A DNA stretch of 64,000 nucleotides from an uncultured Bacteroidales bacterium (GCA_934699095.1 CAKUVI010000003.1:67785-131784), one strand, 5' to 3'; shown: positions 37,843 through 64,000, counted from the stretch's first letter. Program-made: numbers and translations. Notes: generated from the letters alone by a model not told the origin.

Positions 37843-40800
37843 ATGAAAACTGAGAAACTATTAGCAGCGGCCGCTGCCGCTTTTGCCGAAAGATGGCAAG
37901 AAAAAGGATATGAGAGAGGCGAGTCCCAGCTGTTTTGGGCCGACTTGCTGACCAACGTGTATGGCGTGGAGGACCTGCCCTCTTTCATCCGCTACGAGGA
38001 GCGGGTGAGCAGCATGGTGGATTCCACCAACTTCATCGATGGGCACATTCCCTCGACAAGAGTGCTCATCGAGCAGAAATCCTTGGGCAAAGACCTGCGG
38101 GCTCCCGTCACGCAGAGCGACGGCGGCAAACTCACCCCTTTCCAGCAGGCGAAAAAATACGTGGCCAACATGCCCCTTTCGCAGCACCCCAAGTGGATCG
38201 TGACCTGCAACTTCGAGGAGTTCCTCGTCTATGACATGGAACGGCCGAACGGGGAGCCCGAACAGATTCTGCTGAAAAATTTGGGCAAAGAGTTCTTCCG
38301 TCTCCGGTTTTTAGTCGATAGCAGAAGCGAACATCTTGCGAAAGAACTGCAGGTCTCGATGAAGGCCGGCGAGATTGTGGGCAAAATGTACGATGCCCTG
38401 TTAGAGCGATACGACGACAATTCGCCCGAGGCCCTGCGCTGGCTCAACATCCTGTGTGTGCGCCTCGTTTTCTGCATGTACGCCGAGGATGCCGCCGTGT
38501 TCCGGCATGACCAGTTCCACGACTTCCTGAATGGATGCAGTGCCGAAGACCTGAACGAGGCCCTGCAGAAGCTCTTCAGTGTGCTCAACACGCCGTTGGA
38601 GAAACGCAGCAAATACCTGAAAGACGACCTGAAGGCGTTTCCTTACACCAACGGCGGCTTGTTCGAGGAGGAGATTGAGATTCCGATTTTCACGGAGGAG
38701 CTGAAGCAGACGCTGCTGCAGAACGCGAGCCTCGACTTCGACTGGAGCGAGATTTCGCCCACCATCTTCGGGGCCGTTTTCGAAAGCACGCTGAATCCCG
38801 TGACCCGGCGCAGCGGAGGCATGCACTACACCTCGATAGAGAATATCCACAAGGTGATAGACCCTCTTTTCTTGAATGATCTGCGCGATGAACTTGACGA
38901 AATCCTGACCGAGAAGACTGAAAAACAACGTGTTAAAAAACTGGAAGCGTATCAGGAAAAGCTGGCGTCGCTGACATTTCTCGACCCTGCCTGCGGCTCT
39001 GGAAATTTTCTCACGGAGACCTACCTTTCGCTAAGAAGGTTGGAGAATGAGGCCCTGCGCGAGCGTTATCACGGGCAAATGATGATGGGGGCGTTTATGA
39101 ACCCCGTCAAGGTGAGCATCCACCAGTTCTACGGAATCGAGATCAACGATTTCGCCGTCACAGTGGCCACCACCGCGCTTTGGATTTCCGAGGCGCAGAT
39201 GCTGGCGGAGACGGAGCGCATCATCCAGCACGACATCGACTTTCTGCCTCTGAAGAGCTATGCCAACATCAAGGAGGGAAATGCATTGCGGGTGGACTGG
39301 AACAGCATAGGAGCCGACGCTTCCAGCGTCGCTAAAGGAGGCAACGCTTCCAGCGTTGCAGAATACAGAACTGACACTACCAGCGCTGTAAAAGAAGGAA
39401 CAAGCGATTCTGTCGCCCTTGGGAATGGGGCTGAGAATGTCATGCTGGGAAGCAAGTCTGAGAATGTCACGCTTGGAAGCAAGTCTGAGAATGTCACGCT
39501 TGGAAGCAAGTCTGAGAATGTCACGCTTGGAAGCGTGACCTCCTTGCATTTCATGGAACGGAAAGCTTACATCCAAATAACAGGGACAAAGCTTCCGCAC
39601 TGGCATCAAGAAAATAAAGTTCAGTTTGTTACATTTCGACTTGCCGATTCATTACCTCAATCCAAGTTAGCCGAGCTTTCGGAATTCAAAGAAGAGTGGA
39701 TATCCAAGCATCCAGAACCTTGGGACCGCAAGACCGAGGAAGAATACAACCATATCATACGCAAACGTGTCGATAAATGGCTTGACCAAAACTACGGTTC
39801 TTGCTTGCTTCAAAGGGCAGACTTAAGAAAAATAGTTGTTGATGCTCTGCTCTTTTATCACGGAAAGCGCTATTGGTTACATCATTTTGTCATCATGCCC
39901 AATCATGTCCATCTGTTGCTTTCACCCATAGGTGAAGAAACTGTAGGGAAAGCATTAGGTAGTGTTAAACAATTTACGTCCAACGCCATCAACAAGGCAA
40001 TTGGAGCCAAAGGGTCGGTTTGGCAGCGTGAAGTTTTTGACAGAATGGTGCGCGATGCCGACAACTACGAGGCATACGTGGCCTATATCAACAACAATCC
40101 GGCAAATCTGCCTCAAGGTTCATTTACCATAGGAGGCGACGCTGGAAGCGTCGCTAAAGGAGGCAACGCTTCCAGCGTTGCAACAAAGGGAGCAAGTGAT
40201 TTTGTCACGCTTGGAAGCGAGCCTGATGACTCTGTCACGCTTGGAAGCGAGCCTGATGACTCTGTCACGCTTGGAAGCGTGACCTCCTATGACTACATCA
40301 TGGGTAACCCGCCGTTTGTGGGCTACACATTCCAAAGCAAGGAACAAAAGGATGACCTTGCAGCCATAATGAAAGGCTTTGGCAGCAATATCGACTATGT
40401 GGCCGGATGGTATCTCAAGGCCTCTCAATATATGCAGTCGAACCCTCAAACCCGGTGCGCTTTGGTGTCAACCAATTCCATCACACAAGGCGAACAAGTG
40501 TCGGCAATTTGGAAACCTTTGTTTGAAAAATTCGGCATACACTTTGATTTCGCCTACCGCACTTTCCGCTGGGACAGCGAAGCTGACATCAAGGCGCATG
40601 TGCATTGCGTGGTATTAGGTTTTTCCGTTGCACCAAATTCCAAGCCAAGGACTATTTATCTTCCCGAAGGACAGTCTATTCAGGTGTCCAATATCAATGG
40701 CTATTTGCTGGATGCGCCGGATGTGTTTATCGAGAATCGGAAGAAGCCTTTGTGCGATGTTCCAGAGATGGTAAAAGGAAGTCAGCCAACCGATGGTGGG

Positions 40801-41571
40801 AACCTGATTTTGTCCAAAGCCGAAATGGAAGATTTGGTCGGCAAGTATCCGCAAATTGAGCCTTACGTTCACCGCTATGTCGGATCCGATGAGTTCATCA
40901 ACAACAAATACCGTTATTGCCTATGGCTTGCCAACGCCAATCCTGCGGTTTTGCGTTCATGCCCGCCCGTAATGGAGCGGATTGAGCGGGTAAGGCAAAT
41001 GCGACTTTCAAGTCCGAAAGCTGCCACACAGAAATGGGCGGAGTTTCCAACGCTTTTCACCGAGAACCGGCAGCCCGAAAGCGACTACCTGCTTGTGCCC
41101 AGCGTCAGCTCGGAAAACAGAAGATATGTCCCCATCGGTTATATGAAGAAAGATGTGGTTGCCAGCAATCTTGCCTTTGTCGTACCCAATGCATCGCTTT
41201 ATCATTTTGGTGTGATTACTTCCAACGTCCACATGGCCTGGATGCGTGCCGTTTGCGGGAGGTTAAAGAGTGATTATAGATATAGCAACACCATCGTCTA
41301 TAACAACTTCCCGTGGCCGAATCCTACCGAAAAGCAAAAGGCAAAGATTGAGCAGACGGCCCAGGCCATACTCGATGTCCGGGCCAAATATCCGGACTGC
41401 TCGTTGGCCGACCTCTACGACGAGGCCGCCATGCCGCCCGAGTTGCGCAAAGCCCATCAGGAGAACGACAAAGCCTTGATGGTGGCCTACGGGTTCGATA
41501 TCAAGATGAGTGAAAGCGAGTGTGTGGCCGAACTGTTCCGAGTGTACACGCAGTTTACGGCTGAATCATGA
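37843..41571 (+). CDS. MmeI-family type IIL restriction-modification enzyme (nuclease plus N6-adenine methyltransferase plus TRD) carrying an in-frame RAYT insertion
   Basis: N-terminal D...EQK nuclease motif (NFIDGHIPSTRVLIEQKSLG), FLDPACGSGNFL (motif I), IMGNPPFVG (motif IV) and a long C-terminal TRD. Motifs I and IV are separated by the 39313-40287 insert. Confidence 0.85.
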   Translation: MKTEKLLAAAAAAFAERWQEKGYERGESQLFWADLLTNVYGVEDLPSFIRYEERVSSMVDSTNFIDGHIPSTRVLIEQKSLGKDLRAPVTQSDGGKLTPFQQAKKYVANMPLSQHPKWIVTCNFEEFLVYDMERPNGEPEQILLKNLGKEFFRLRFLVDSRSEHLAKELQVSMKAGEIVGKMYDALLERYDDNSPEALRWLNILCVRLVFCMYAEDAAVFRHDQFHDFLNGCSAEDLNEALQKLFSVLNTPLEKRSKYLKDDLKAFPYTNGGLFEEEIEIPIFTEELKQTLLQNASLDFDWSEISPTIFGAVFESTLNPVTRRSGGMHYTSIENIHKVIDPLFLNDLRDELDEILTEKTEKQRVKKLEAYQEKLASLTFLDPACGSGNFLTETYLSLRRLENEALRERYHGQMMMGAFMNPVKVSIHQFYGIEINDFAVTVATTALWISEAQMLAETERIIQHDIDFLPLKSYANIKEGNALRVDWNSIGADASSVAKGGNASSVAEYRTDTTSAVKEGTSDSVALGNGAENVMLGSKSENVTLGSKSENVTLGSKSENVTLGSVTSLHFMERKAYIQITGTKLPHWHQENKVQFVTFRLADSLPQSKLAELSEFKEEWISKHPEPWDRKTEEEYNHIIRKRVDKWLDQNYGSCLLQRADLRKIVVDALLFYHGKRYWLHHFVIMPNHVHLLLSPIGEETVGKALGSVKQFTSNAINKAIGAKGSVWQREVFDRMVRDADNYEAYVAYINNNPANLPQGSFTIGGDAGSVAKGGNASSVATKGASDFVTLGSEPDDSVTLGSEPDDSVTLGSVTSYDYIMGNPPFVGYTFQSKEQKDDLAAIMKGFGSNIDYVAGWYLKASQYMQSNPQTRCALVSTNSITQGEQVSAIWKPLFEKFGIHFDFAYRTFRWDSEADIKAHVHCVVLGFSVAPNSKPRTIYLPEGQSIQVSNINGYLLDAPDVFIENRKKPLCDVPEMVKGSQPTDGGNLILSKAEMEDLVGKYPQIEPYVHRYVGSDEFINNKYRYCLWLANANPAVLRSCPPVMERIERVRQMRLSSPKAATQKWAEFPTLFTENRQPESDYLLVPSVSSENRRYVPIGYMKKDVVASNLAFVVPNASLYHFGVITSNVHMAWMRAVCGRLKSDYRYSNTIVYNNFPWPNPTEKQKAKIEQTAQAILDVRAKYPDCSLADLYDEAAMPPELRKAHQENDKALMVAYGFDIKMSESECVAELFRVYTQFTAES
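39307..39543 (+). repeat. Left REP-like module flanking the RAYT core
   Basis: Hairpins GACGCT-TCC-AGCGTC (39316-39330) and CAACGCT-TCC-AGCGTTG (39342-39358). Three 27-nt tandem units lie at 39448-39528. Terminal hairpin GTCACGCTTGGAAGCGTGAC at 39520-39539. Confidence 0.85.
39553..40128 (+). mobile_element. REP-associated tyrosine transposase (RAYT, Y1/HUH, IS200-like) coding core with no stop codon of its own
   Basis: MERKAYIQITGTKLPHWHQENKVQFVTFRLADSLP, HUH in IMPNHVHLLL, WQREVFDRMVRD, and the Tyr motif NYEAYVAYINNNP. Confidence 0.8.
40129..40288 (+). repeat. Right REP-like module flanking the RAYT core
   Basis: A 54-nt direct repeat of 39307-39360, but with the first hairpin loop inverted (GACGCT-GGA-AGCGTC, 40138-40152). 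Two 30-nt tandem units lie at 40213-40272. The terminal 25 nt are identical to 39520-39544. Confidence 0.85.
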
Positions 41572-50392: not shown

Positions 50393-50446
50393 AGCCTTCG
50401 GTTGTCAATTTACTTCGTGTTAACATGAAATAACCAACCGAAGTAC
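50393..50446. repeat. GTTAAC-hairpin intergenic repeat, copy c
   Basis: GCCTTCGGTTG...TACTTCGTGTTAACATGAAATAACCAACCGAAGTA. The outer arms CTTCGGTTG/CAACCGAAG can pair. Confidence 0.75.
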
Positions 50447-53376: not shown

Positions 53377-53412
53377 AATAGACTATGACTCACTAAACTT
53401 AAAGAAAAAAAC

Positions 53413-53808
53413 TATGAAGAAAGTAAAGATTACCGTCCTCAAAACGATGCTGAATGAGGACTTGGCAAAGGAATATGGCATCTGCGGACTGAAAGCGTGT
53501 CCGATGATGAAGGAAGGTGATGTGTTTTATTCCGACTATGCAAAGCCTGATGGTTTTTGTGACGAAGCATGGAAAGCCATCTATCAGTATGTGTTTGCAC
53601 TGGCTCATGGTGCAGACAAAGGACTGTTCTACTATGGCGATTGGATTAAAGAGCCCGGTGTGGCCGTTGTCAGTTGCAATGACGGCCTTCGTCCTGTGAT
53701 AATGAAACTTGAAGCAACAGATGAGGAAGCCAGGATGGATTATTCGCCAATAGAAAGATGATGAAAAATATGGAACACAAAATCCTGAACAATGGACTGA
53801 AGATGCCG
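53413..53808 (+). repeat. ~396-bp segmental duplication, copy 1 (copy 2 at 58973-59369)
   Basis: The encoded 115-aa proteins and the shadow ORFs are identical in both copies. The copies diverge after AATGGACT-GAAGATGCCG. Confidence 0.85.
53414..53761 (+). CDS. TIGR04076-family small protein (copy 1)
   Basis: 115 aa, with KACPMMKEGDVF...KPDGFCDEAWKAI. Confidence 0.7.
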   Translation: MKKVKITVLKTMLNEDLAKEYGICGLKACPMMKEGDVFYSDYAKPDGFCDEAWKAIYQYVFALAHGADKGLFYYGDWIKEPGVAVVSCNDGLRPVIMKLEATDEEARMDYSPIER

Positions 53809-54606: not shown

Positions 54607-54645
54607 CCTTCGTGTTAACACGAAGTAGCAAACACGAAGTAACAA
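54596..54645. repeat. GTTAAC-hairpin intergenic repeat, copy d
   Basis: A perfect 18-nt palindrome CTTCGTGTTAACACGAAG at 54608-54625, plus a second right arm AACACGAAGTA at 54631-54641. Confidence 0.8.
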
Positions 54646-57120: not shown

Positions 57121-57249
57121 ATGAAAAAAGTCATCGTAATTTCAACCAGTCTCCGCCCGGGTGCCACCCACTGCTACCTATACGACGGCAGCGAGGGCAA
57201 CTGCATCCCGTGGGACTCGCTGGCGGAGTTTTTTGGAAAGAATCTATAG
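57121..57249 (+). pseudogene. Chimeric 42-codon mini-ORF, copy 1: FMN-reductase-like start fused to an alpha/beta-hydrolase 3' end
   Basis: MKKVIVISTSLRPG joined to ATHCYLYDGSEGNCIPWDSLAEFFGKNL. Compare PGATHCDLYDGGEGNYIPWDKLAEFFGKNL at the end of 32781-33581. Confidence 0.55.
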
Positions 57250-57255
57250 ATAACT

Positions 57256-57274
57256 AACAGATAAATCGGAATTT
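57256..57274 (+). repeat. Conserved intergenic linker AACAGATAAATCGGAATTT, copy 1
   Basis: It directly abuts the ATG at 57275. Confidence 0.75.
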
Positions 57275-57922
57275 ATGGAGATAAAAAACAGACCCAACCC
57301 CAATGAGGCCTTCCCGAATCCTAAGATTCCAAGCCTCTGCTTCATCAAGAACGTGGTGAAGAACCCGCGTATCATCATCGGCGACTATACCTATTATGAT
57401 GACGTGGATGGTGCAGACCAATTCGAGAAGCACGTCACTCATTTCTACGACTTCATTGGCGACCGTCTAATTATTGGCAAATTCTGCGCTATTGCCAGGG
57501 GTGTGGAGTTTGTCATGAATGGAGCCAATCATAGGATGGACGGTGTGACAACCTATCCGTTTTATGTCATTGGTGGCGACTGGGGAAGTGCCATTGCTCC
57601 AGTGAAAGATGAATTGCCTCTGAAGGGTGATACCGTTGTGGGCAATGATGTCTGGATTGGCCAGCATGTTACCATCATGCCAGGCGTTCACATAGGTGAC
57701 GGAGCAATTATCGGAGCCAACTCTGTTGTTGCCTCGGACATTCCTCCATACGCTGTCGCCGTGGGGAATCCTTGCCGTGTGGTCAGAAAGCGCTTCGACG
57801 ACGAATTCATCGCTTATCTGCTGGAACTGAAATGGTGGGATTGGAACATTGAGAGGATTGAGGCCAATTTCGAGGCCTTGTCAAGTGGCGATTTATCGCT
57901 GATTAGAAAGATTGATCAATAG
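57275..57922 (+). CDS. Vat-family (streptogramin A / xenobiotic) hexapeptide O-acetyltransferase
   Basis: PNPNEAFPN...IIIGDYTYYDD...FVMNGANHRMDGVTTYPF...GDTVVGNDVWIGQHVTIMPGVHIGDGAIIGANSVV. Confidence 0.8.
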   Translation: MEIKNRPNPNEAFPNPKIPSLCFIKNVVKNPRIIIGDYTYYDDVDGADQFEKHVTHFYDFIGDRLIIGKFCAIARGVEFVMNGANHRMDGVTTYPFYVIGGDWGSAIAPVKDELPLKGDTVVGNDVWIGQHVTIMPGVHIGDGAIIGANSVVASDIPPYAVAVGNPCRVVRKRFDDEFIAYLLELKWWDWNIERIEANFEALSSGDLSLIRKIDQ

Positions 57923-57932
57923 TTTGTCATCC

Positions 57933-58454
57933 ATGGTTATACTGATAGCAGGTGCATCACATACGGGTAAAACGCTTTTGGCGCAGCGGATGCTTGAAAA
58001 ATACAAGTACCCATATATGTCTATGGATCATTTGAAGATGGGCTTGATCCGCAGTGGCAACACCACCCTGACACCGGAAGATGATGATGCCTTAACGGAA
58101 TACCTTTGGCCCATTGTCCGCGAGATCATCAAGACAGCGATCGAAAATCATCAGAATCTCATAATAGAAGGCGGCTATGTTCCATACAACTGGAGAGAAT
58201 GCTTTGAAGAACCGTATTTGAACGCTATCCGTTTCATTTGTCTTGCCTTGACAGACGAATACATTGACCAACACTTTTCCGAAATAAAAGGACACAGCAT
58301 GGATATTGAAAAGCGGCTGGAAGACAGTTGCACTGTTGCCACTTTAAAGAATGACAACAAGAACTATATTGATGGTTTTAAGAAGGTTGGAGAAAAGGTC
58401 TGTATGATCAACTCCGATTATGAACAAGTGATTCAGTCTATTTTGGACATTTAA
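57933..58454 (+). CDS. P-loop NTPase / small-molecule kinase-like protein
   Basis: ILIAGASHTGKTLLA Walker A. The start is uncertain (57912 or 57933). Confidence 0.6.
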   Translation: MVILIAGASHTGKTLLAQRMLEKYKYPYMSMDHLKMGLIRSGNTTLTPEDDDALTEYLWPIVREIIKTAIENHQNLIIEGGYVPYNWRECFEEPYLNAIRFICLALTDEYIDQHFSEIKGHSMDIEKRLEDSCTVATLKNDNKNYIDGFKKVGEKVCMINSDYEQVIQSILDI

Positions 58455-58477
58455 TTCAATTTTCACGAAATAATACA

Positions 58478-58606
58478 ATGAAAAAAGTAATCGTAATTTC
58501 AACCAGTCTCCGCCCCGGCGCCACCCACTGCGACCTATACGACGGCAGCGATGGCAACTGCATCCCGTGGGACACGCTGGCGGAGTTTTTTGGAAAGAAT
58601 CTATAG
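58478..58606 (+). pseudogene. Chimeric 42-codon mini-ORF, copy 2
   Basis: MKKVIVISTSLRPGATHCDLYDGSDGNCIPWDTLAEFFGKNL has the same fusion junction as copy 1. Confidence 0.55.
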
Positions 58607-58612
58607 ATAAGT

Positions 58613-58631
58613 AACAGATAAAACGGAATTG
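58613..58631 (+). repeat. Conserved intergenic linker, copy 2 (AACAGATAAAACGGAATTG)
   Basis: It ends 2 nt before the ATG at 58634. Confidence 0.7.
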
Positions 58632-58633
58632 TT

Positions 58634-58930
58634 ATGATTGTTTTGATTATTGTCGCCGCCATCCTTCTCATAATGGGAATAATCATACTTGTCGGCAAGG
58701 GAGATAACCTGATTGCCGGCTATAACACTGCCTCGAAAGAAGAGAAGTCGCAGTATAATATCAAACGCCTTCGGGGCTTGATTGGCGGCATCTTGGTCGT
58801 GTTGGCCCCAATGATGTTACTGCTGCTTGGGAGAGAGTCTTTGGCCGCTACACTCTCATTTGTGGTCCTTACCTTCGTTTTGTGTATCGTCATGGTGCTT
58901 CTCGCCAACACTTGGGCAAAAAAGAGGTAA
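58634..58930 (+). CDS. DUF3784-like small membrane protein
   Basis: 98 aa with three TM segments and GKGDNLIAGYNTASKEEKSQYN. Confidence 0.65.
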   Translation: MIVLIIVAAILLIMGIIILVGKGDNLIAGYNTASKEEKSQYNIKRLRGLIGGILVVLAPMMLLLLGRESLAATLSFVVLTFVLCIVMVLLANTWAKKR

Positions 58931-58972
58931 TGTAAATTCCAATGTAACAACGATAACTAACAGAAAATAATA

Positions 58973-59369
58973 TATGAAGAAAGTAAAGATTACCGTCCTC
59001 AAAACGATGCTGAATGAGGACTTGGCAAAGGAATATGGCATCTGCGGACTGAAAGCGTGTCCGATGATGAAGGAAGGTGATGTGTTTTATTCCGACTATG
59101 CAAAGCCTGATGGTTTTTGTGACGAAGCATGGAAAGCCATCTATCAGTATGTGTTTGCACTGGCTCATGGTGCAGACAAAGGACTGTTCTACTATGGCGA
59201 TTGGATTAAAGAGCCCGGTGTGGCCGTTGTCAGTTGCAATGACGGCCTTCGTCCTGTGATAATGAAACTTGAAGCAACAGATGAGGAAGCCAGGATGGAT
59301 TATTCGCCAATAGAAAGATGATGAAAAATATGGAACACAAAATCCTGAACAATGGACTTGAAGATGCCG
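58973..59369 (+). repeat. ~396-bp segmental duplication, copy 2
   Basis: See 53413-53808. Confidence 0.85.
58974..59321 (+). CDS. TIGR04076-family small protein (copy 2, identical to copy 1)
   Basis: The 115-aa translation is identical to 53414-53761. Confidence 0.7.
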   Translation: MKKVKITVLKTMLNEDLAKEYGICGLKACPMMKEGDVFYSDYAKPDGFCDEAWKAIYQYVFALAHGADKGLFYYGDWIKEPGVAVVSCNDGLRPVIMKLEATDEEARMDYSPIER

Positions 59370-59452
59370 CAATCCGGAGGTTGGACACCGGCCGCAACGT
59401 GACCGGCTGGCCGTCGGATGCGCTCCGATATGAGCCTGCGTCCGTTGATTGG
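59330..59452 (+). pseudogene. Aldo/keto reductase remnant: the first ~10 codons fused to the last ~25 codons
   Basis: MEHKILNNGL joined to ...RRLDTGRNVTGWPSDALRYEPA. The reading frame then runs into the hairpin repeat. Confidence 0.7.
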
Positions 59453-59502
59453 CCTTCGGCTGTTAATTACTTCGTGTTAACATGAAGTAATCAACATGAA
59501 GT
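59452..59502. repeat. GTTAAC-hairpin intergenic repeat, copy e
   Basis: GCCTTCGGCTGTTAAT, then TACTTCGTGTTAACATGAAGTA (59468-59489), plus an extra arm AACATGAAGT. Confidence 0.8.
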
Positions 59503-59602
59503 TTGCAGGGCTTGTTTGGCGGTTCGAAATTATTTTCGTATTTTTGCCGCAGAATTTGCGACGTTACAAATGGTATTTCGCCGCATCAAGTGCGAATGAG
59601 TT

Positions 59603-60913
59603 ATGTATATACACGAAAGAGAAGAATGGACAAACTTCCGTTGGGACACTTCCCAAGTATCTCTCCTTCAGGAGAAAGTCTTCCGTAAGCAGGGGCTGCT
59701 TTATGGCAGGCTGAGTTCGTTGGGCTTTGACAGCAAACTGCGTGCGATGGCAGAAAACCTGACATACGATGTGGTGTATTCTTCGGAGATAGAAGGCATT
59801 CAGCTGAACGTGGATCAGGTTCGTTCTTCCATTGCCAGAAAACTTGGCATTGAAAATGTGAAATATACAGCACCCTCGCACTATGTTGACTCTGTTGTGG
59901 GTGTGATGCTTGAAGCAGTCCAGCACTATGACATGCCTCTCGGCAAAGAGAAACTGTGTGCTTGGCAAGCCGCTTTCTTTCCATCGGGCTACAGCGAGGG
60001 TGGTCAGATAGAAATTGGCAAATACCGTACAAACGAAGAGCATATTGTCAGCGGAATGTTCGGACGTGAGAAAATCCACTATATTGCTCCGTCACCAGAC
60101 CGTATAGAGGAGGAAATGCAAAAGTTCCTCGCTTGGTTTGATGGAGAAGAGCCTGTGAGCAGTGTCATCCGTTCAGCCATTGCCCATTTCTGGTTTGTGA
60201 GCATTCATCCCTTTGAGGATGGCAATGGGCGGTTGGCCCGTATCCTTTCTGACATGATGTTGGCGCGTGGAGAAAAGAGTGAGTTCCGTTTCTATAATGT
60301 TTCATCACAGATTAACATGGACAAGAACCACTATTACGAGATTCTTGAACGTATGCAGCATGGCGATGGCGACCTTACAGAATGGTTGGTGTGGTACATG
60401 CAGAAATTGGTGGACGCACTCGACGAGGCTGACACCATCGTGACTACCATCTTAAACAAAAGTTTCTTCTGGCAGAAGGCATCGGCAGTTCCCATGACCG
60501 AGCGACAGACCCAGATGCTCAATCTCTTTCTTGACGGCTATGAGGCAAAGATAACGTCAAAGACATGGGCAACATTGGCAAAATGCTCGAAGGACACGGC
60601 CATACGTGACATACAGGATCTTGTCGATAAGAATATCTTGATAGAGGATATCCCTGGAGCCAAGCGACCAAGTTACTCCATCGTCTATGATGCAGAGGAC
60701 TTGACGCAATTCTTCACTGATATAAACATTAAGGAGGAGAATGACATTCCATATCTCAATGCTTTATATAAAGGAAAGAAGTCGATATGCGAAAGGATTC
60801 TCAAACTTGACGCAGACCGATACCGGGAAGGCGATTTGCCATTGTCCAATCTGCTTAGCAAATACTGCTCGTATATCATTGCAAGCAATAAAGAAAATAA
60901 AACCAACAGATAA
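59603..60913 (+). CDS. Fic-family protein (DUF4172 N-terminus, Fic core, C-terminal winged-helix-like region)
   Basis: HPFEDGNGRLAR Fic motif and an SSEIEG inhibitory-helix-like motif. A -7 box lies at 59539-59546. Confidence 0.85.
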   Translation: MYIHEREEWTNFRWDTSQVSLLQEKVFRKQGLLYGRLSSLGFDSKLRAMAENLTYDVVYSSEIEGIQLNVDQVRSSIARKLGIENVKYTAPSHYVDSVVGVMLEAVQHYDMPLGKEKLCAWQAAFFPSGYSEGGQIEIGKYRTNEEHIVSGMFGREKIHYIAPSPDRIEEEMQKFLAWFDGEEPVSSVIRSAIAHFWFVSIHPFEDGNGRLARILSDMMLARGEKSEFRFYNVSSQINMDKNHYYEILERMQHGDGDLTEWLVWYMQKLVDALDEADTIVTTILNKSFFWQKASAVPMTERQTQMLNLFLDGYEAKITSKTWATLAKCSKDTAIRDIQDLVDKNILIEDIPGAKRPSYSIVYDAEDLTQFFTDINIKEENDIPYLNALYKGKKSICERILKLDADRYREGDLPLSNLLSKYCSYIIASNKENKTNR

Positions 60914-60923
60914 ATCGGAATTT
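60905..60923 (+). repeat. Conserved intergenic linker, copy 3
   Basis: AACAGATAAATCGGAATTT. The Fic stop codon lies inside it. Confidence 0.75.
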
Positions 60924-60987
60924 ATTGTTTCATTAAAAAGGTCTTGGTAGAGACCAGAGCATCGACTCGAAACACTCCAAAGACTAT

Positions 60988-62547
60988 ATGAAGAAGATAT
61001 TCACTTTTTTGGTTGGTGCCTGTCTCTCGGTAGGAGTAATGGCACAAGGTGCTTTGGTTTTCGATGCCAAAGCAGGTGTTAAATCGAAGATGACCGTTTA
61101 TGACGGCACGGAGGTCAGTTATACGGCCTACGAACGGCTGTTCTATGTGACGAATGTGGAGGACTCTACCTATCAGTTCCTCAATGTCTATGTGCCTGAT
61201 GGTGCGACGCAGCAGACTCCTATCTTCCTGCGTACCTACGTGGGTGGCTACATGGCCTCTCCTGCTGCCCAGCCACAAGCGGGCGATGCTACGGGCAGGG
61301 CCTTGAAGGAGGGTTATGTGGTAGTGATTCCGGGTACACGTGGGCGCAACTCTTCCATTGTTGCAGACAAGACATACACCAAAAGTCGCAAGGGTGTGAA
61401 GACTGGGCAGACCATCTATACGGGTCGTGCGCCAAAGGCTATCCTCGATCTGAAAGCTGCTATCCGCTATCTGCGCCACTTCGACAAGGAGATGCCGGGC
61501 AATGCCGAGCGCATCATCACCGACGGAACAAGTGCCGGAGGTGCTATGTCGGCACTAATGGGAGCTACGGGCAACAATCCTGAATATGCCGAACTGCTGA
61601 AGGCGATGGGTGCTGCCGATGAGCGCGACGACGTGTTTGCCTCAGTCTGCTATTGTCCCATCATCGACCTTGAGCATGCCGATATGGCCTATGAGTGGTT
61701 GTATGGGCTGACCGATTCCCGTCAGGCTCTTGACGACACTCATAAACAGATGACCAAAGAGCTTGCCGCCATGTATCCGGCTTATGTAAATAGCCTGAAC
61801 CTGAAGAAACCCGACGGCACACCGCTGACAGCCGACAATTACCTCGACTACCTGAAGAGCGAGATCATCCGTGCGGCACAGATTGCGAAGAATGCCGGAG
61901 CCGACATTCCAGACAGCATAGGATTCTCGTTCAGCAATTCGGCTGGTGGTATGTTTGCGGCACCGATAAACGGAGGGATGCGTCCGCAGATGCCTCAGGG
62001 CGACAATCGCCCGCAGATGCAGGGTGGCCAGCCGCCGAAGGGTATGCGTCCTATGCGTGGCGGTATGGGGCGTAAGCAAGTGGGCGAATACATCACCGAC
62101 CTCGATATGCAGAAGTATCTGAACTACGTGGTATCTACACAGGCGTTGAAAGGTGTTCCTGCTTTTGACAGTCAGATAGAGGGCATCAACAGTGCCAGTG
62201 GCGAGAACGAAGAGTTTGGCGACGAGACAGGCAGCAGCGTGAACTTCACAAAGTTCACGGCTCAGAAGAATGGCACTACTGTTAGTGATGCCATCCGTCA
62301 GAACGTGCGTCTGTTGAACCCCATGAGTTTCATTGGTGACGGCAACACCTCGGTGGCTCCCCACTGGTATATCCGTCATGGTGCACGCGACCGCGACACG
62401 GCCTTCCCCGTGCCCGTCAACTTCGCCACGAAGCTCCAAAACGCGGGCAAGGACGTAAACTTCCTTTTGGCTTGGAACCGTCCGCATAGTGGTGATTATT
62501 CTCTCGATGAGCTGTTCCAGTGGATTGCAGACATCGTAAATAAATAA
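60988..62547 (+). CDS. Secreted alpha/beta hydrolase, tannase (subtype B)-like esterase
   Basis: Signal peptide, and DGTSAGGAMSAL (GxSxG) followed by CYCPIIDLEHADMAYEW. The tannase resemblance is recalled from memory. It has a low-complexity Pro/Gln/Met/Gly insert. Confidence 0.65.
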   Translation: MKKIFTFLVGACLSVGVMAQGALVFDAKAGVKSKMTVYDGTEVSYTAYERLFYVTNVEDSTYQFLNVYVPDGATQQTPIFLRTYVGGYMASPAAQPQAGDATGRALKEGYVVVIPGTRGRNSSIVADKTYTKSRKGVKTGQTIYTGRAPKAILDLKAAIRYLRHFDKEMPGNAERIITDGTSAGGAMSALMGATGNNPEYAELLKAMGAADERDDVFASVCYCPIIDLEHADMAYEWLYGLTDSRQALDDTHKQMTKELAAMYPAYVNSLNLKKPDGTPLTADNYLDYLKSEIIRAAQIAKNAGADIPDSIGFSFSNSAGGMFAAPINGGMRPQMPQGDNRPQMQGGQPPKGMRPMRGGMGRKQVGEYITDLDMQKYLNYVVSTQALKGVPAFDSQIEGINSASGENEEFGDETGSSVNFTKFTAQKNGTTVSDAIRQNVRLLNPMSFIGDGNTSVAPHWYIRHGARDRDTAFPVPVNFATKLQNAGKDVNFLLAWNRPHSGDYSLDELFQWIADIVNK

Positions 62548-62552
62548 CAACC

Positions 62553-62571
62553 AACAGATAAATCGAAATTT
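62553..62571 (+). repeat. Conserved intergenic linker, copy 4 (AACAGATAAATCGAAATTT)
   Basis: It starts 6 nt after the stop codon at 62547. Confidence 0.75.
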
Positions 62572-62587
62572 AACTTACTGAGATATT

Positions 62588-63235
62588 ATGATTGACAGAA
62601 AGAAAGATGAGCAGTATCACGATATGCTCAACAATGGAGAAATGTACGACAGCGTGGACGATCAATTCATAGCCTACCAGCATGAATTAGTGCAGAAACT
62701 CAACGAGTTTAACCGCACGGACGAGACGCCGGAAGGACTTGCCAAGCGCGATGAGATGCTGCGCGACATGTGCGGCACGTACGGCGAGAACCTGTATATC
62801 ATTCCGCCTATTCACGCCAACTGCGGTTTGCGGCACATCCACTTCGGCAAGAACGTGGTGGTTAATTTCAACTGCATGTTCGTCGATGACGGTGACATTT
62901 TCATCGGTGACGATGTGATGATCGGTCCGGGTTGTTGTTTGGCAACCTCTATTCATCCTGTTTCGCCCAAGCTGCGCAAGTATAAGATCCAGCGCAACAA
63001 GTCCATCCGTCTCGGCAATAACGTATGGCTCGGTGCAGGAGCAGTCATCCTGCCGGGTGTAACTATCGGCGATAACTCGATTGTCGGAGCAGGCGCAGTA
63101 GTGACTAAAGATGTTCCCGCCAACAGCATAGTGGTCGGCAATCCCGCTAAGGTGCTTCGTCAGATAACCGAGGATGATGACCGCTTCGAAGGCGGTAAGC
63201 CTATCCCGCAGGAACTGATAGACAAATATATGTAA
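62588..63235 (+). CDS. Maltose O-acetyltransferase-like hexapeptide acetyltransferase with a C-terminal extension
   Basis: NVWLGAGAVILPGVTIGDNSIVGAGAVVTKDVPANSIVVGNPAKVL. Confidence 0.8.
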   Translation: MIDRKKDEQYHDMLNNGEMYDSVDDQFIAYQHELVQKLNEFNRTDETPEGLAKRDEMLRDMCGTYGENLYIIPPIHANCGLRHIHFGKNVVVNFNCMFVDDGDIFIGDDVMIGPGCCLATSIHPVSPKLRKYKIQRNKSIRLGNNVWLGAGAVILPGVTIGDNSIVGAGAVVTKDVPANSIVVGNPAKVLRQITEDDDRFEGGKPIPQELIDKYM

Positions 63236-63339
63236 CATGAAAATCGAAGATAAAAGTCGACCGCTCAATAGAGGAGTTGAACGCCTCAAAGACGAGTTTC
63301 GTGCAATGGAATGTAAAATAGATTAAAAACACTCATATT

Positions 63340-64000
63340 ATGTCAGATATTTATCAACCCATCAACATCGGCGGAGTGATGTTACGCAATAGTGTTTTGC
63401 GTGCAGCCACTGACGAGGCAATGGCAGATTCAAGTGGTTTTCCGTCCGACCAACTTGCAACACTTTACGAGCGACTTGCCAAAGGTGGTGTGGGCGGCAT
63501 CATCACCGGCTACATGGGTATCAACTGCAATGGTCGCTCTCCGCAGGATGGAATGTGCCTTATTGACAAAGATGACAAGATAGAGCCGTTGCGCGATATA
63601 GTGAAGCGTGTACATGCTTTAGACACTCCGATAATTGTGCAGATAGCACATTGCGGGCGCAATGGGGCTGAAAAATACCAAAAAGTGGGTGAATTTACCG
63701 ACACCCGGATTGAGGCAGTCATCAGTGATTTCGTGCAAGCCGTGCGCAGAGCCAAAGAGGCGGAGTTTGATGCGGCGGAGTTGCATTGCGCCCATGGCTA
63801 TCTATTGAGTGAGTTTCTTTCTCCCAAGACCAACCACCGCTGTGATAAATGGGGCGGCAGCGTGGAAAATCGTTTCCGCATTGTGCGAGAGATCATGCTG
63901 CGCGTACGAGAGCAAATGCCGGATTTCCCCGTTTGGGCGAAAATCAACGGAATGGAAGGCAAAGGCATCACACCTGCTTTGGCAGCACAATACGCACGGC
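63340..64000 (+). CDS. NADH:flavin oxidoreductase (Old Yellow Enzyme family), 3'-partial (runs off the window end)
   Basis: My own translation from the ATG at 63340: MSDIYQPINIGGVMLRNSVLRAAT...IVQIAHCGR...ELHCAHGYLLSEFLSPKTNHRCDKWGGSVENRFR. The frame is open to the end of the window, so it is absent from the ORF track. Confidence 0.8.
   Translation, partial: MSDIYQPINIGGVMLRNSVLRAATDEAMADSSGFPSDQLATLYERLAKGGVGGIITGYMGINCNGRSPQDGMCLIDKDDKIEPLRDIVKRVHALDTPIIVQIAHCGRNGAEKYQKVGEFTDTRIEAVISDFVQAVRRAKEAEFDAAELHCAHGYLLSEFLSPKTNHRCDKWGGSVENRFRIVREIMLRVREQMPDFPVWAKINGMEGKGITPALAAQYAR

Follow-up and report, generated by a model that had tools for sequence, protein, structure and literature searches.

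Short paired boundary sites in a Bacteroidales gene array as candidate recombination sites of single-gene cassettes

Capture of single genes at recombination sites is established for integrons and for the dif modules of Acinetobacter, both of which are mainly proteobacterial, and work on ICESt elements in Streptococcus reportedly describes the tandem accretion of integrative elements and cis-mobilizable elements (CIMEs) at one att site. The Acinetobacter modules have been described from Rep_3 plasmids, with their pdif sites and the recombinases XerC/XerD (Ambrose, Xiao & Hall 2026, PMC13141974). Bacteroidales carry a further type of array, rAID-1, with a XerD-like recombinase at the 5' end, a guanine-plus-cytosine (GC) content of at most 41%, immunity genes, and repetitive intergenic sequences that the authors found "reminiscent of integrons" (Ross et al. 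2019, bioRxiv 10.1101/471110). Here we describe a co-directional array of genes in a 64,000-nt stretch of an uncultured Bacteroidales bacterium (GCA_934699095.1, CAKUVI010000003.1:67785-131784; hereafter the window, which is C3:67785-131784 of genome G000, 2.4 Mb in 17 contigs), where a 19-nt sequence, site A, recurs between unrelated genes and, together with an inverted partner, site B, probably bounds exchangeable cassettes. A sequence-only reading of the window had compared the repeated boundary either to recombination-site-delimited cassettes or to a shared translation-initiation or processing signal.

Site A is the 19-mer AACAGATAAATCGGAATTT, present in four copies in the window, all on the plus strand, where 0.03 matches are expected from shuffled windows. 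The motif had been placed after stop codons at 57256, 58613, 60905 and 62553, and we confirmed all four, two being exact and the others carrying one and two mismatches. Site A1 (57256-57274, or to 57275 with the trailing A) is an exact AACAGATAAATCGGAATTT(A), and the ATG of the Vat gene begins at 57275, on its last base; site A2 (58613-58631, or to 58632 with the next base) has two mismatches, AACAGATAAAACGGAATTG; site A3 (60905-60923, or to 60924) is exact; and site A4 (62553-62571, or to 62572) has one mismatch. What had been noticed as a partial match at about 58950 is a decayed A-like leader, AACAGAAAATAATAT, at 58959-58973 on the plus strand, directly 5' of an ATG at 58974. Across the whole genome, site A occurs six times at ≤2 mismatches, always on one strand and always within the 12 kb of C3:125040-136935, two of the copies lying just beyond the window end (C3:132317 and C3:136917); outside the array, no site A was found within ≤3 mismatches except one unrelated site.

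From its sequence, site A can be read as an outer arm, AACAGATAAA, a 6-nt spacer, TCGGAA, and then TTTA. Conservation of its bases ends abruptly at both edges across the flank contexts described below, and in distant members the invariant part is TAAAT(C/T)GGAATTTA. The arrangement GATAAA-TCGGAA-TTTAT(C) fits two inverted arms with a 6-8-bp overlap, but the inner arm is conserved over only 4 nt. An ATG comes 13 nt after a TAA contained in the site, and this TAA is the stop codon of two array genes. By itself site A forms only a 6-bp A/T hairpin of -2 kcal/mol, and a search of the whole window against Rfam at gathering thresholds gave no match.

Species-representative genomes and metagenome contigs were scanned for the exact 19-mer; the sample is anchored on that exact sequence, so that variation within A is under-sampled. 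The genome collection yielded dozens of listed matches versus about 4 expected by chance (estimated from collection size). Their sources were mostly draft genomes of rumen Bacteroidales and Prevotellaceae, with at least 120 metagenome contigs in addition. After removal of duplicates, public rumen genomes and metagenomes provided at least 154 different flank contexts of site A, and the motif therefore has independent copies beyond the segment that is duplicated in the window. Site A is nevertheless uncommon: at ≤1 mismatch, 9 of the 54 other genomes in the genus carry it, as do 6 of 400 genomes drawn evenly from the whole order. Most of the nine matches in the genus are no more than about 300 nt from a contig end, as would be the case for a repeat or a strain-variable junction, and copy numbers from draft genomes are thus underestimates. 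No 19-mer was found in a scan of IMG/VR, and PLSDB, queried with the block formed by a mini open reading frame (ORF), site A and Vat, returned only distant vat(E)-type gene matches (67-69% identity) with no A/B context.

Genes are shuffled at these sites. Analysis of 83 junctions revealed 75 distinct pairs, made up of 53 upstream and 81 downstream protein clusters, and 7-13 different partners were found for each of three anchor genes, which encode a TM1586-type nitroreductase, an esterase lipoprotein and Fic; among 138 loci these three are also recurrent neighbors, along with FMN reductase and aldo/keto reductase. Homology switches sharply at the motif. A GNAT cassette is 99.3% identical between loci L006 and L018 and a VOC cassette 98.7% identical between L034 and L110, with flanks that align at only 55-65% identity; conversely, the pairs L149/L154 and L244/L253 have flanks 79-96% identical and unrelated cargo. 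Within the genus, the gene that comes after Fic and site A is Vat in G044, FMN reductase in G003 and the esterase in G000, evidence that gene order at the motif varies between species, while the junction of mini-ORF, site A and Vat is common to G000, G010 and G072. All 19 bases are exact although adjacent coding sequence is only about 80% identical.

The partner, site B, is TAAATTCCAATTTAKC or TAAATTCCAATTTA(T/G/A)C, found on the same strand as A and forming an imperfect inverted complement of it. Its layout appears to be that of A inverted, TAAA, TTCCAA, TTTA(T/G)C with a variable outer arm, and in about 90% of units a single spacer base separates it from the inverse of A. Five non-A matches to site B at ≤2 mismatches exist in G000, four of them within the site A array. 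Along C3 the order, all on one strand, is A 125040, A' 126397, B' 126717, A 128689, A 130337, A 132317, B 133679, A 136917, B 137139 and B 139863. The copy inside the window, B' (TAAATTCCAATGTAAC, 58933-58948, plus strand), begins 2 nt past the DUF3784 stop as the inverted partner. Three A..B pairs in this genome enclose one gene each, for DUF3784, a flavodoxin-Lcl lipoprotein and a 65-aa membrane protein; in addition there are direct runs of site A, corresponding to "fused" modules.

The loci collected from rumen genomes and metagenomes hold 77 unique same-strand A..B units. The usual unit consists of A, 0-6 nt, ATG, a single ORF, and a stop within or just 5' of B: in about 35 of the 77 the lone ORF starts 0-6 nt past A and stops on the TAA of B, and in most of the remainder its stop is 3-19 nt upstream of B. 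Five units are empty (L012, L025, L082, L155 and L215), with only 30 nt between A and B, and these 70-nt units fold into hairpins of -7 to -9 kcal/mol (z about -2.7). Sites alternate as A,B,A,B in L006, L150, L193, L208, L231, L233 and L250; the one instance of an A close behind a B is a decayed one, at 58933-58973. The cargo is diverse, 53 proteins having matched 45 Pfam families, among them Vat/Maa hexapeptide acetyltransferases, CAT, GNAT, a beta-lactamase-family protein, glyoxalase, SDR, EamA, GyrI-like proteins, CAAX proteases, lipoproteins, small membrane proteins and DUFs. Variants of site B occur without compensating change in A, and a C/A mismatch is retained in 90% of pairs; a helix between A and B is therefore not what selection keeps, and the lack of compensation favors two protein-binding sites over a selected helix. 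As a separate observation, four head-to-tail variant sites, ATCTCGTAAATCGGAATTTA, lie about 78 nt apart at L204 10850-11100, followed by a GC-rich arm (TGTGCAAGCCGAG...), and in L249, L150 and L046 the same GC-rich arms stand immediately inward of A and B.

The core of site A is present in two tyrosine-recombinase systems. In 13 loci from Acutalibacteraceae, Faecalibacterium sp. CAG:74 and human-gut and rumen contigs, a Clostridial mobilizable element of 7-7.5 kb, carrying Xis-like and XRE genes and a Mob-type relaxase that is a candidate from its N-terminal sequence, encodes a PF00589 integrase of 432-456 aa whose gene ends 112 nt 5' of an exact 19-mer. These 112 nt are conserved, and the 13 loci diverge immediately past the 19-mer, where mostly GGAGG and the ATG of various small genes follow. 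At the other (left) end, the element has an A-like direct repeat, which is GACAGACAAACTGGAATTT, GAAAGACAAATTGGAATTT, AGAAGATAAATCAGAATTT or GGGTGATAAATGAGAATTT. Since the exact 19-mer forms the right end and an A-like direct repeat the left, the 19-mer is the attachment core of this integrase. The element targets A-like sites between small co-directional accessory genes, with a flavodoxin-like gene on one side and, on the other, what we read as a putative Sel1-repeat gene and a putative GNAT gene; in that target array there is also a B-like site, whose spacer matches.

The second system is an hsdS shufflon of a type I restriction locus on a rumen contig (L165 8666-12323), with a 330-aa Xer-like recombinase. 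It holds four copies of TAAATCGGAATTTA on both strands, and left and right homologies re-assort exactly there. The inverted repeats contain the 14-nt core of site A, which encodes I-N-R-N-L. A further context, from metagenome contigs (L268-L276), is an integrative element with at least six different left flanks or insertion sites, in which a slot made up of promoter, A, CAT and B lies 0.5 kb downstream of two tandem integrase genes with Arm-DNA-bind_5, SAM_5 and Phage_integrase domains. In L149 this slot holds a different first cassette, and in L272 the array goes on after B with esterase, YjbR and DUF5131 genes. The left end of the element is not A-like; it maps close to GTTCTATTTTTACGAATATC and appears to take the place of the target gene's 3' end.

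We favor the view that A and B are core-type tyrosine-recombinase sites bounding promoterless gene cassettes, and from the sequence evidence above we consider it reasonably likely. Recombination of A with A, or of B with B, would move, swap, add or delete the intervening DNA, the crossover presumably falling in the 6-nt spacer, and such events would yield arrays of the form A-gene-A-gene-A-gene-B, as in this genome. The one-base spacer difference would block recombination of A with B and thereby keep cassettes co-oriented with an upstream promoter, and TTTA would be the start of a weakly conserved inner arm belonging to the cargo. A TAnnTTTG box, the Bacteroidetes -7 promoter box, stands at a fixed 14 nt 5' of A in 17 contexts, and A lies directly 3' of a gene's stop codon in 73; cassettes are probably expressed from the upstream promoter. 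Because A sets the ATG 0-6 nt downstream and B often provides the stop, we propose that a cassette could be expressed wherever it is inserted. The cassette comparison made by the sequence-only reading thus gains support from the sharp homology switches at the motif, the partner site, the empty units and the tyrosine-recombinase contexts.

Several observations weigh against this interpretation, and the absence of a linked recombinase is its main weakness. No recombinase ORF lies beside the array in C3:124000-143999, where the earlier suggestion to look for one beyond the window came to nothing; the gene 5' of the array encodes a DUF4143 AAA ATPase. Clustering of neighbor proteins at 138 Bacteroidales loci revealed no recombinase recurring beside A/B units, a weak resolvase-like ORF being near them in only 4 of the 138. 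Genome G000 has only four tyrosine-recombinase genes, two of them Xer-like genes on C4, and none is close to the integrase of the mobilizable element or to the shufflon recombinase; a search of this genome for homologues of these two and of the tandem integrases gave generic Xer-like matches only. Further points on this side are the low copy number per genome (1-4 in most draft genomes), the conservation of the inner arm of site A for only 4 nt, which is unusual in a core site, the nature of the Clostridial element as a single lineage and hence one observation, and the hsdS match, which is coding sequence (QINRNL) and could be partly coincidental. Since none is encoded beside the array, a recombinase would act in trans or have acted in the past.

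One small contig of this genome, C17 (3.7 kb), was considered as an hsdS shufflon and rejected: it encodes a small Xer-like tyrosine recombinase, followed by a co-directional AbiH-like gene assigned by sequence motifs only, with a DUF4143 ATPase fragment and tandem repeats at the contig end. It may represent a recombinase-associated defense array of the rAID type.

A quite different explanation would place the signal in RNA, with A as a portable leader, or a linker between cistrons, that serves translation initiation, coupling or mRNA processing, B as a matching stop or insulator, and shuffling by homologous recombination. Bacteroidetes rarely use Shine-Dalgarno sites, and the position of A suits such a role: of 134 contexts, 65 have an ATG 0-6 nt past A and 88 have one within 20 nt, the TAA inside the motif serves as stop codon for two array genes, the distance from the -7 promoter box is fixed, and no recombinase is linked to the sites in Bacteroidales. 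Yet only one array in the genome uses the motif, the spacing from A to ATG reaches 65 nt or more than 100 nt, and the exactness of 19/19 bases beside coding sequence of about 80% identity speaks against a translation signal, as do the uncompensated variants of B that leave an A:B helix unmaintained. In addition, the Clostridial 19-mer has a Shine-Dalgarno sequence of its own behind it, GGAGG with an ATG, and marks the end of an integrase element. We therefore regard an RNA-level signal as an unlikely primary explanation; the motif may have a translation or processing function as a secondary role. Quite unlikely, too, is that A and B are terminal inverted repeats of non-autonomous transposons, i.e., mobile insertion cassettes, or miniature inverted-repeat transposable elements when empty, with a DDE or other transposase encoded elsewhere. 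Imperfect inverted repeats of 16-20 bp do flank passenger genes, empty versions of 70 bp fold as hairpins, and the same A..B unit recurs in unrelated flanks, but no target-site duplication was found, the bases to the left of A being invariant and those to the right of B highly variable. An ORF nearly always runs from A to B, flush at both ends, A-gene-A-gene-A arrays lack an intervening B, no transposase is among the 25 listed of the 45 Pfam families, and the 19-mer is missing from IMG/VR.

Two other repeat-based explanations fare worse. The window encodes a RAYT, a REP-associated HUH transposase, at 37843-41571, and A and B might be halves of a REPIN-like palindromic repeat served by it, given that the empty A-30 nt-B unit resembles a doublet of repetitive extragenic palindromic (REP) sequences and that other palindromic repeat families are on record in Bacteroidales. 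Against this, the copies in G000 are confined to the one array (≤3 mismatches, bar the unrelated site) with none near the RAYT gene, A alone makes only the weak A/T hairpin noted above, and most units, unlike REPINs, contain a gene; we judge this reading very improbable. That the motif is a by-product of local segmental duplication can be regarded as already refuted. A duplicated block, 57121-57273 and 58478-58630, does include the motif, and two other copies have 12 extra upstream bases in common, TAAATAACAACC, but the flanks of the remaining copies are unrelated on both sides, and both the at least 154 independent contexts elsewhere and the combinatorial junctions are incompatible with such an origin.

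The duplicated block itself is 153 nt long, with 95% identity between its copies, and since the motif lies inside it, two of the four site A copies in the window stem from one duplication, whereas the flanks of the other copies are unrelated. It contains the two chimeric mini-ORFs of the sequence-only reading, which are real and near-identical: mini-ORF 1 (57121-57249, plus strand), a remnant to the left of site A1, and its copy, mini-ORF 2 (58478-58606, plus strand), with the identical fusion junction. In mini-ORF 1, the initial 14 codons of an FMN reductase run into the final 28 codons of an alpha/beta-hydrolase lipoprotein, the junction falling at a common Pro-Gly. The head of the mini-ORF matches the complete FMN reductase gene located 15 kb farther downstream (L001 15901-16437), and its tail matches the C terminus, ...IIPGASHCDLYDGGEGNYIPWDTLAEFFGKNL, of a 366-aa alpha/beta-hydrolase lipoprotein in another genome (L039 6585-7685). 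Since G010 and G072, two further species of the genus, have the same junction, the fusion formed once and then traveled, in line with the earlier proposal that the junction was made once and the whole unit then copied.

The modules between the sites of this array, all on the plus strand, are mosaic in composition, with a GC content of 0.31-0.59 (mostly 0.45-0.59) compared with 0.455 for the genome. Downstream of site A1 is a module (57275-58454) of a Vat-type hexapeptide acetyltransferase (57275-57922) and a small P-loop protein (57933-58454); a DUF3784 cassette (58634-58930) lies between A2 and B'. Next comes a gene that had been called TIGR04076, with an internally deleted aldo/keto reductase remnant (58974-59485), a 99% copy of 53405-53800; the duplicate, aligned as 53405-53800 with 58965-59360, spans this gene and the start of the aldo/keto reductase, and the second reductase copy (59318-59485) retains N- and C-terminal codons only, fused in frame. 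The anchor gene Fic/DUF4172 (59603-60913) ends on the TAA within site A3. It is followed by a secreted BD-FAE-type esterase module (60988-62547), identified by Pfam, and by a module (62588-64000) of a Maa-type acetyltransferase (62588-63235) and an OYE-family flavin oxidoreductase that begins at 63340 and runs past the window end. Most of the gene names given by the sequence-only reading held up against Pfam, namely Vat and Maa (Hexapep), DUF3784, Fic/DUF4172 and the BD-FAE esterase; for its "kinase" there is only a weak AAA_33 match of 22 bits, under the cut-off, and for the "TIGR04076" ORF none.

Other features of the array are worth recording. A perfect palindrome, CTTCGTGTTAACACGAAG, recurs 3' of genes at 50413-50445, 54608-54640 and 59470-59502 of the window, and about 60 nt past it stands a TAnnTTTG-type promoter box (TTTTCGTATTTTTGC at 59533). 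From their sequences, palindrome and box look like a terminator-plus-promoter module splitting the array into at least two transcription units. Directly after the last array cassette come a gene for a RecQ-like helicase with a fused phosphoribosyltransferase (ComF-like) domain and then a DprA-family gene (L001 16798-19997, i.e., C3:140797-143996).

More tentatively, and with the sense that it is somewhat likelier wrong than right, we suggest an integron-independent cassette system common to rumen and gut Bacteroidales and Clostridia, with two inverted sites differing by one spacer base, in which tyrosine recombinases acting in trans, from mobilizable elements, shufflons and integrative elements, would exchange or add cassettes. 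If true, this would amount to recombinase-mediated cassette exchange occurring in nature and spreading drug- and toxin-modifying genes across phyla, and a system comparable to known single-gene capture, operating in rumen and gut anaerobes with sites of its own and without an integron integrase, would give these microbiomes a further route of gene flow. The cargo, which includes Vat, CAT, Maa and members of the beta-lactamase and glyoxalase/bleomycin-resistance families, bears on the tracking of the livestock resistome. The two short sites also offer a search key with which cassettes could be harvested from metagenomes and contig breaks in draft genomes explained. In the literature on Prevotella and Bacteroidales cassettes we found no description of this system, nor did the 19-mer appear in any of the papers searched.

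How does the array compare with the systems introduced above? With CIMEs it shares direct repeats of an integrase att core that divide integrase-less cargo blocks; unlike CIMEs, the blocks here are single genes of 0.2-2 kb, flush with the site and provided with an inverted partner, rather than decayed multi-kilobase elements. Like rAID-1, it is a co-directional array of horizontally acquired Bacteroidales genes with repetitive intergenic sequences, but it has no 5' recombinase, its GC content is mostly 0.45-0.59, and its cargo is of the detoxification and drug-modifying kind. We rejected rAID-1 on these grounds of recombinase, GC content and cargo, which define it in that paper. The resemblance to integrons is broader: promoterless, compact, co-oriented and mostly single-ORF cassettes stand behind a promoter and differ between relatives, the stop codon is often in the boundary site, and the cargo repertoire is similar. 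Nonetheless, an IntI (TIGR02249) search of G000 gave a best score of 85 bits versus a cut-off of 265 bits, the matches being Xer-like or generic, and inspection by eye of the sequences between cassettes found no attC (57-141-nt palindromes with RYYYAAC/GTTRRRY boxes), only a single 19-20-nt A or B. In contrast to integrons, two half-palindromes flank the gene here instead of standing together after it. With neither IntI nor attC, an integron was rejected.

Mimicry of dif by site A was likewise rejected. The candidate chromosomal dif of the host, outside the window at G000:C2:222558-222585, reads TTGTTATATAA-TTTATA-TTATGTTAAAT; it is canonical, with a XerD arm, TTATGTTAAAT, identical to that of E. 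coli, and has only the general layout of arm and 6-nt spacer in common with site A. The Acinetobacter dif modules differ in turn from the array described here, which is chromosomal and belongs to a set of sites from Bacteroidales and Clostridia, has only one well-conserved arm per site, and carries ORFs flush with both sites and nearly always read from A to B. They are nonetheless the closest described architecture. In both, gene modules lie between short, inversely oriented sites, which in Acinetobacter are core sites of arm, 6-bp spacer and arm and here are putative core sites of that layout; the sites tend to alternate along arrays in which empty and fused modules occur; sites whose spacers match exactly or nearly would be the ones expected to recombine; and module content is shuffled, between replicons in the case of Acinetobacter.

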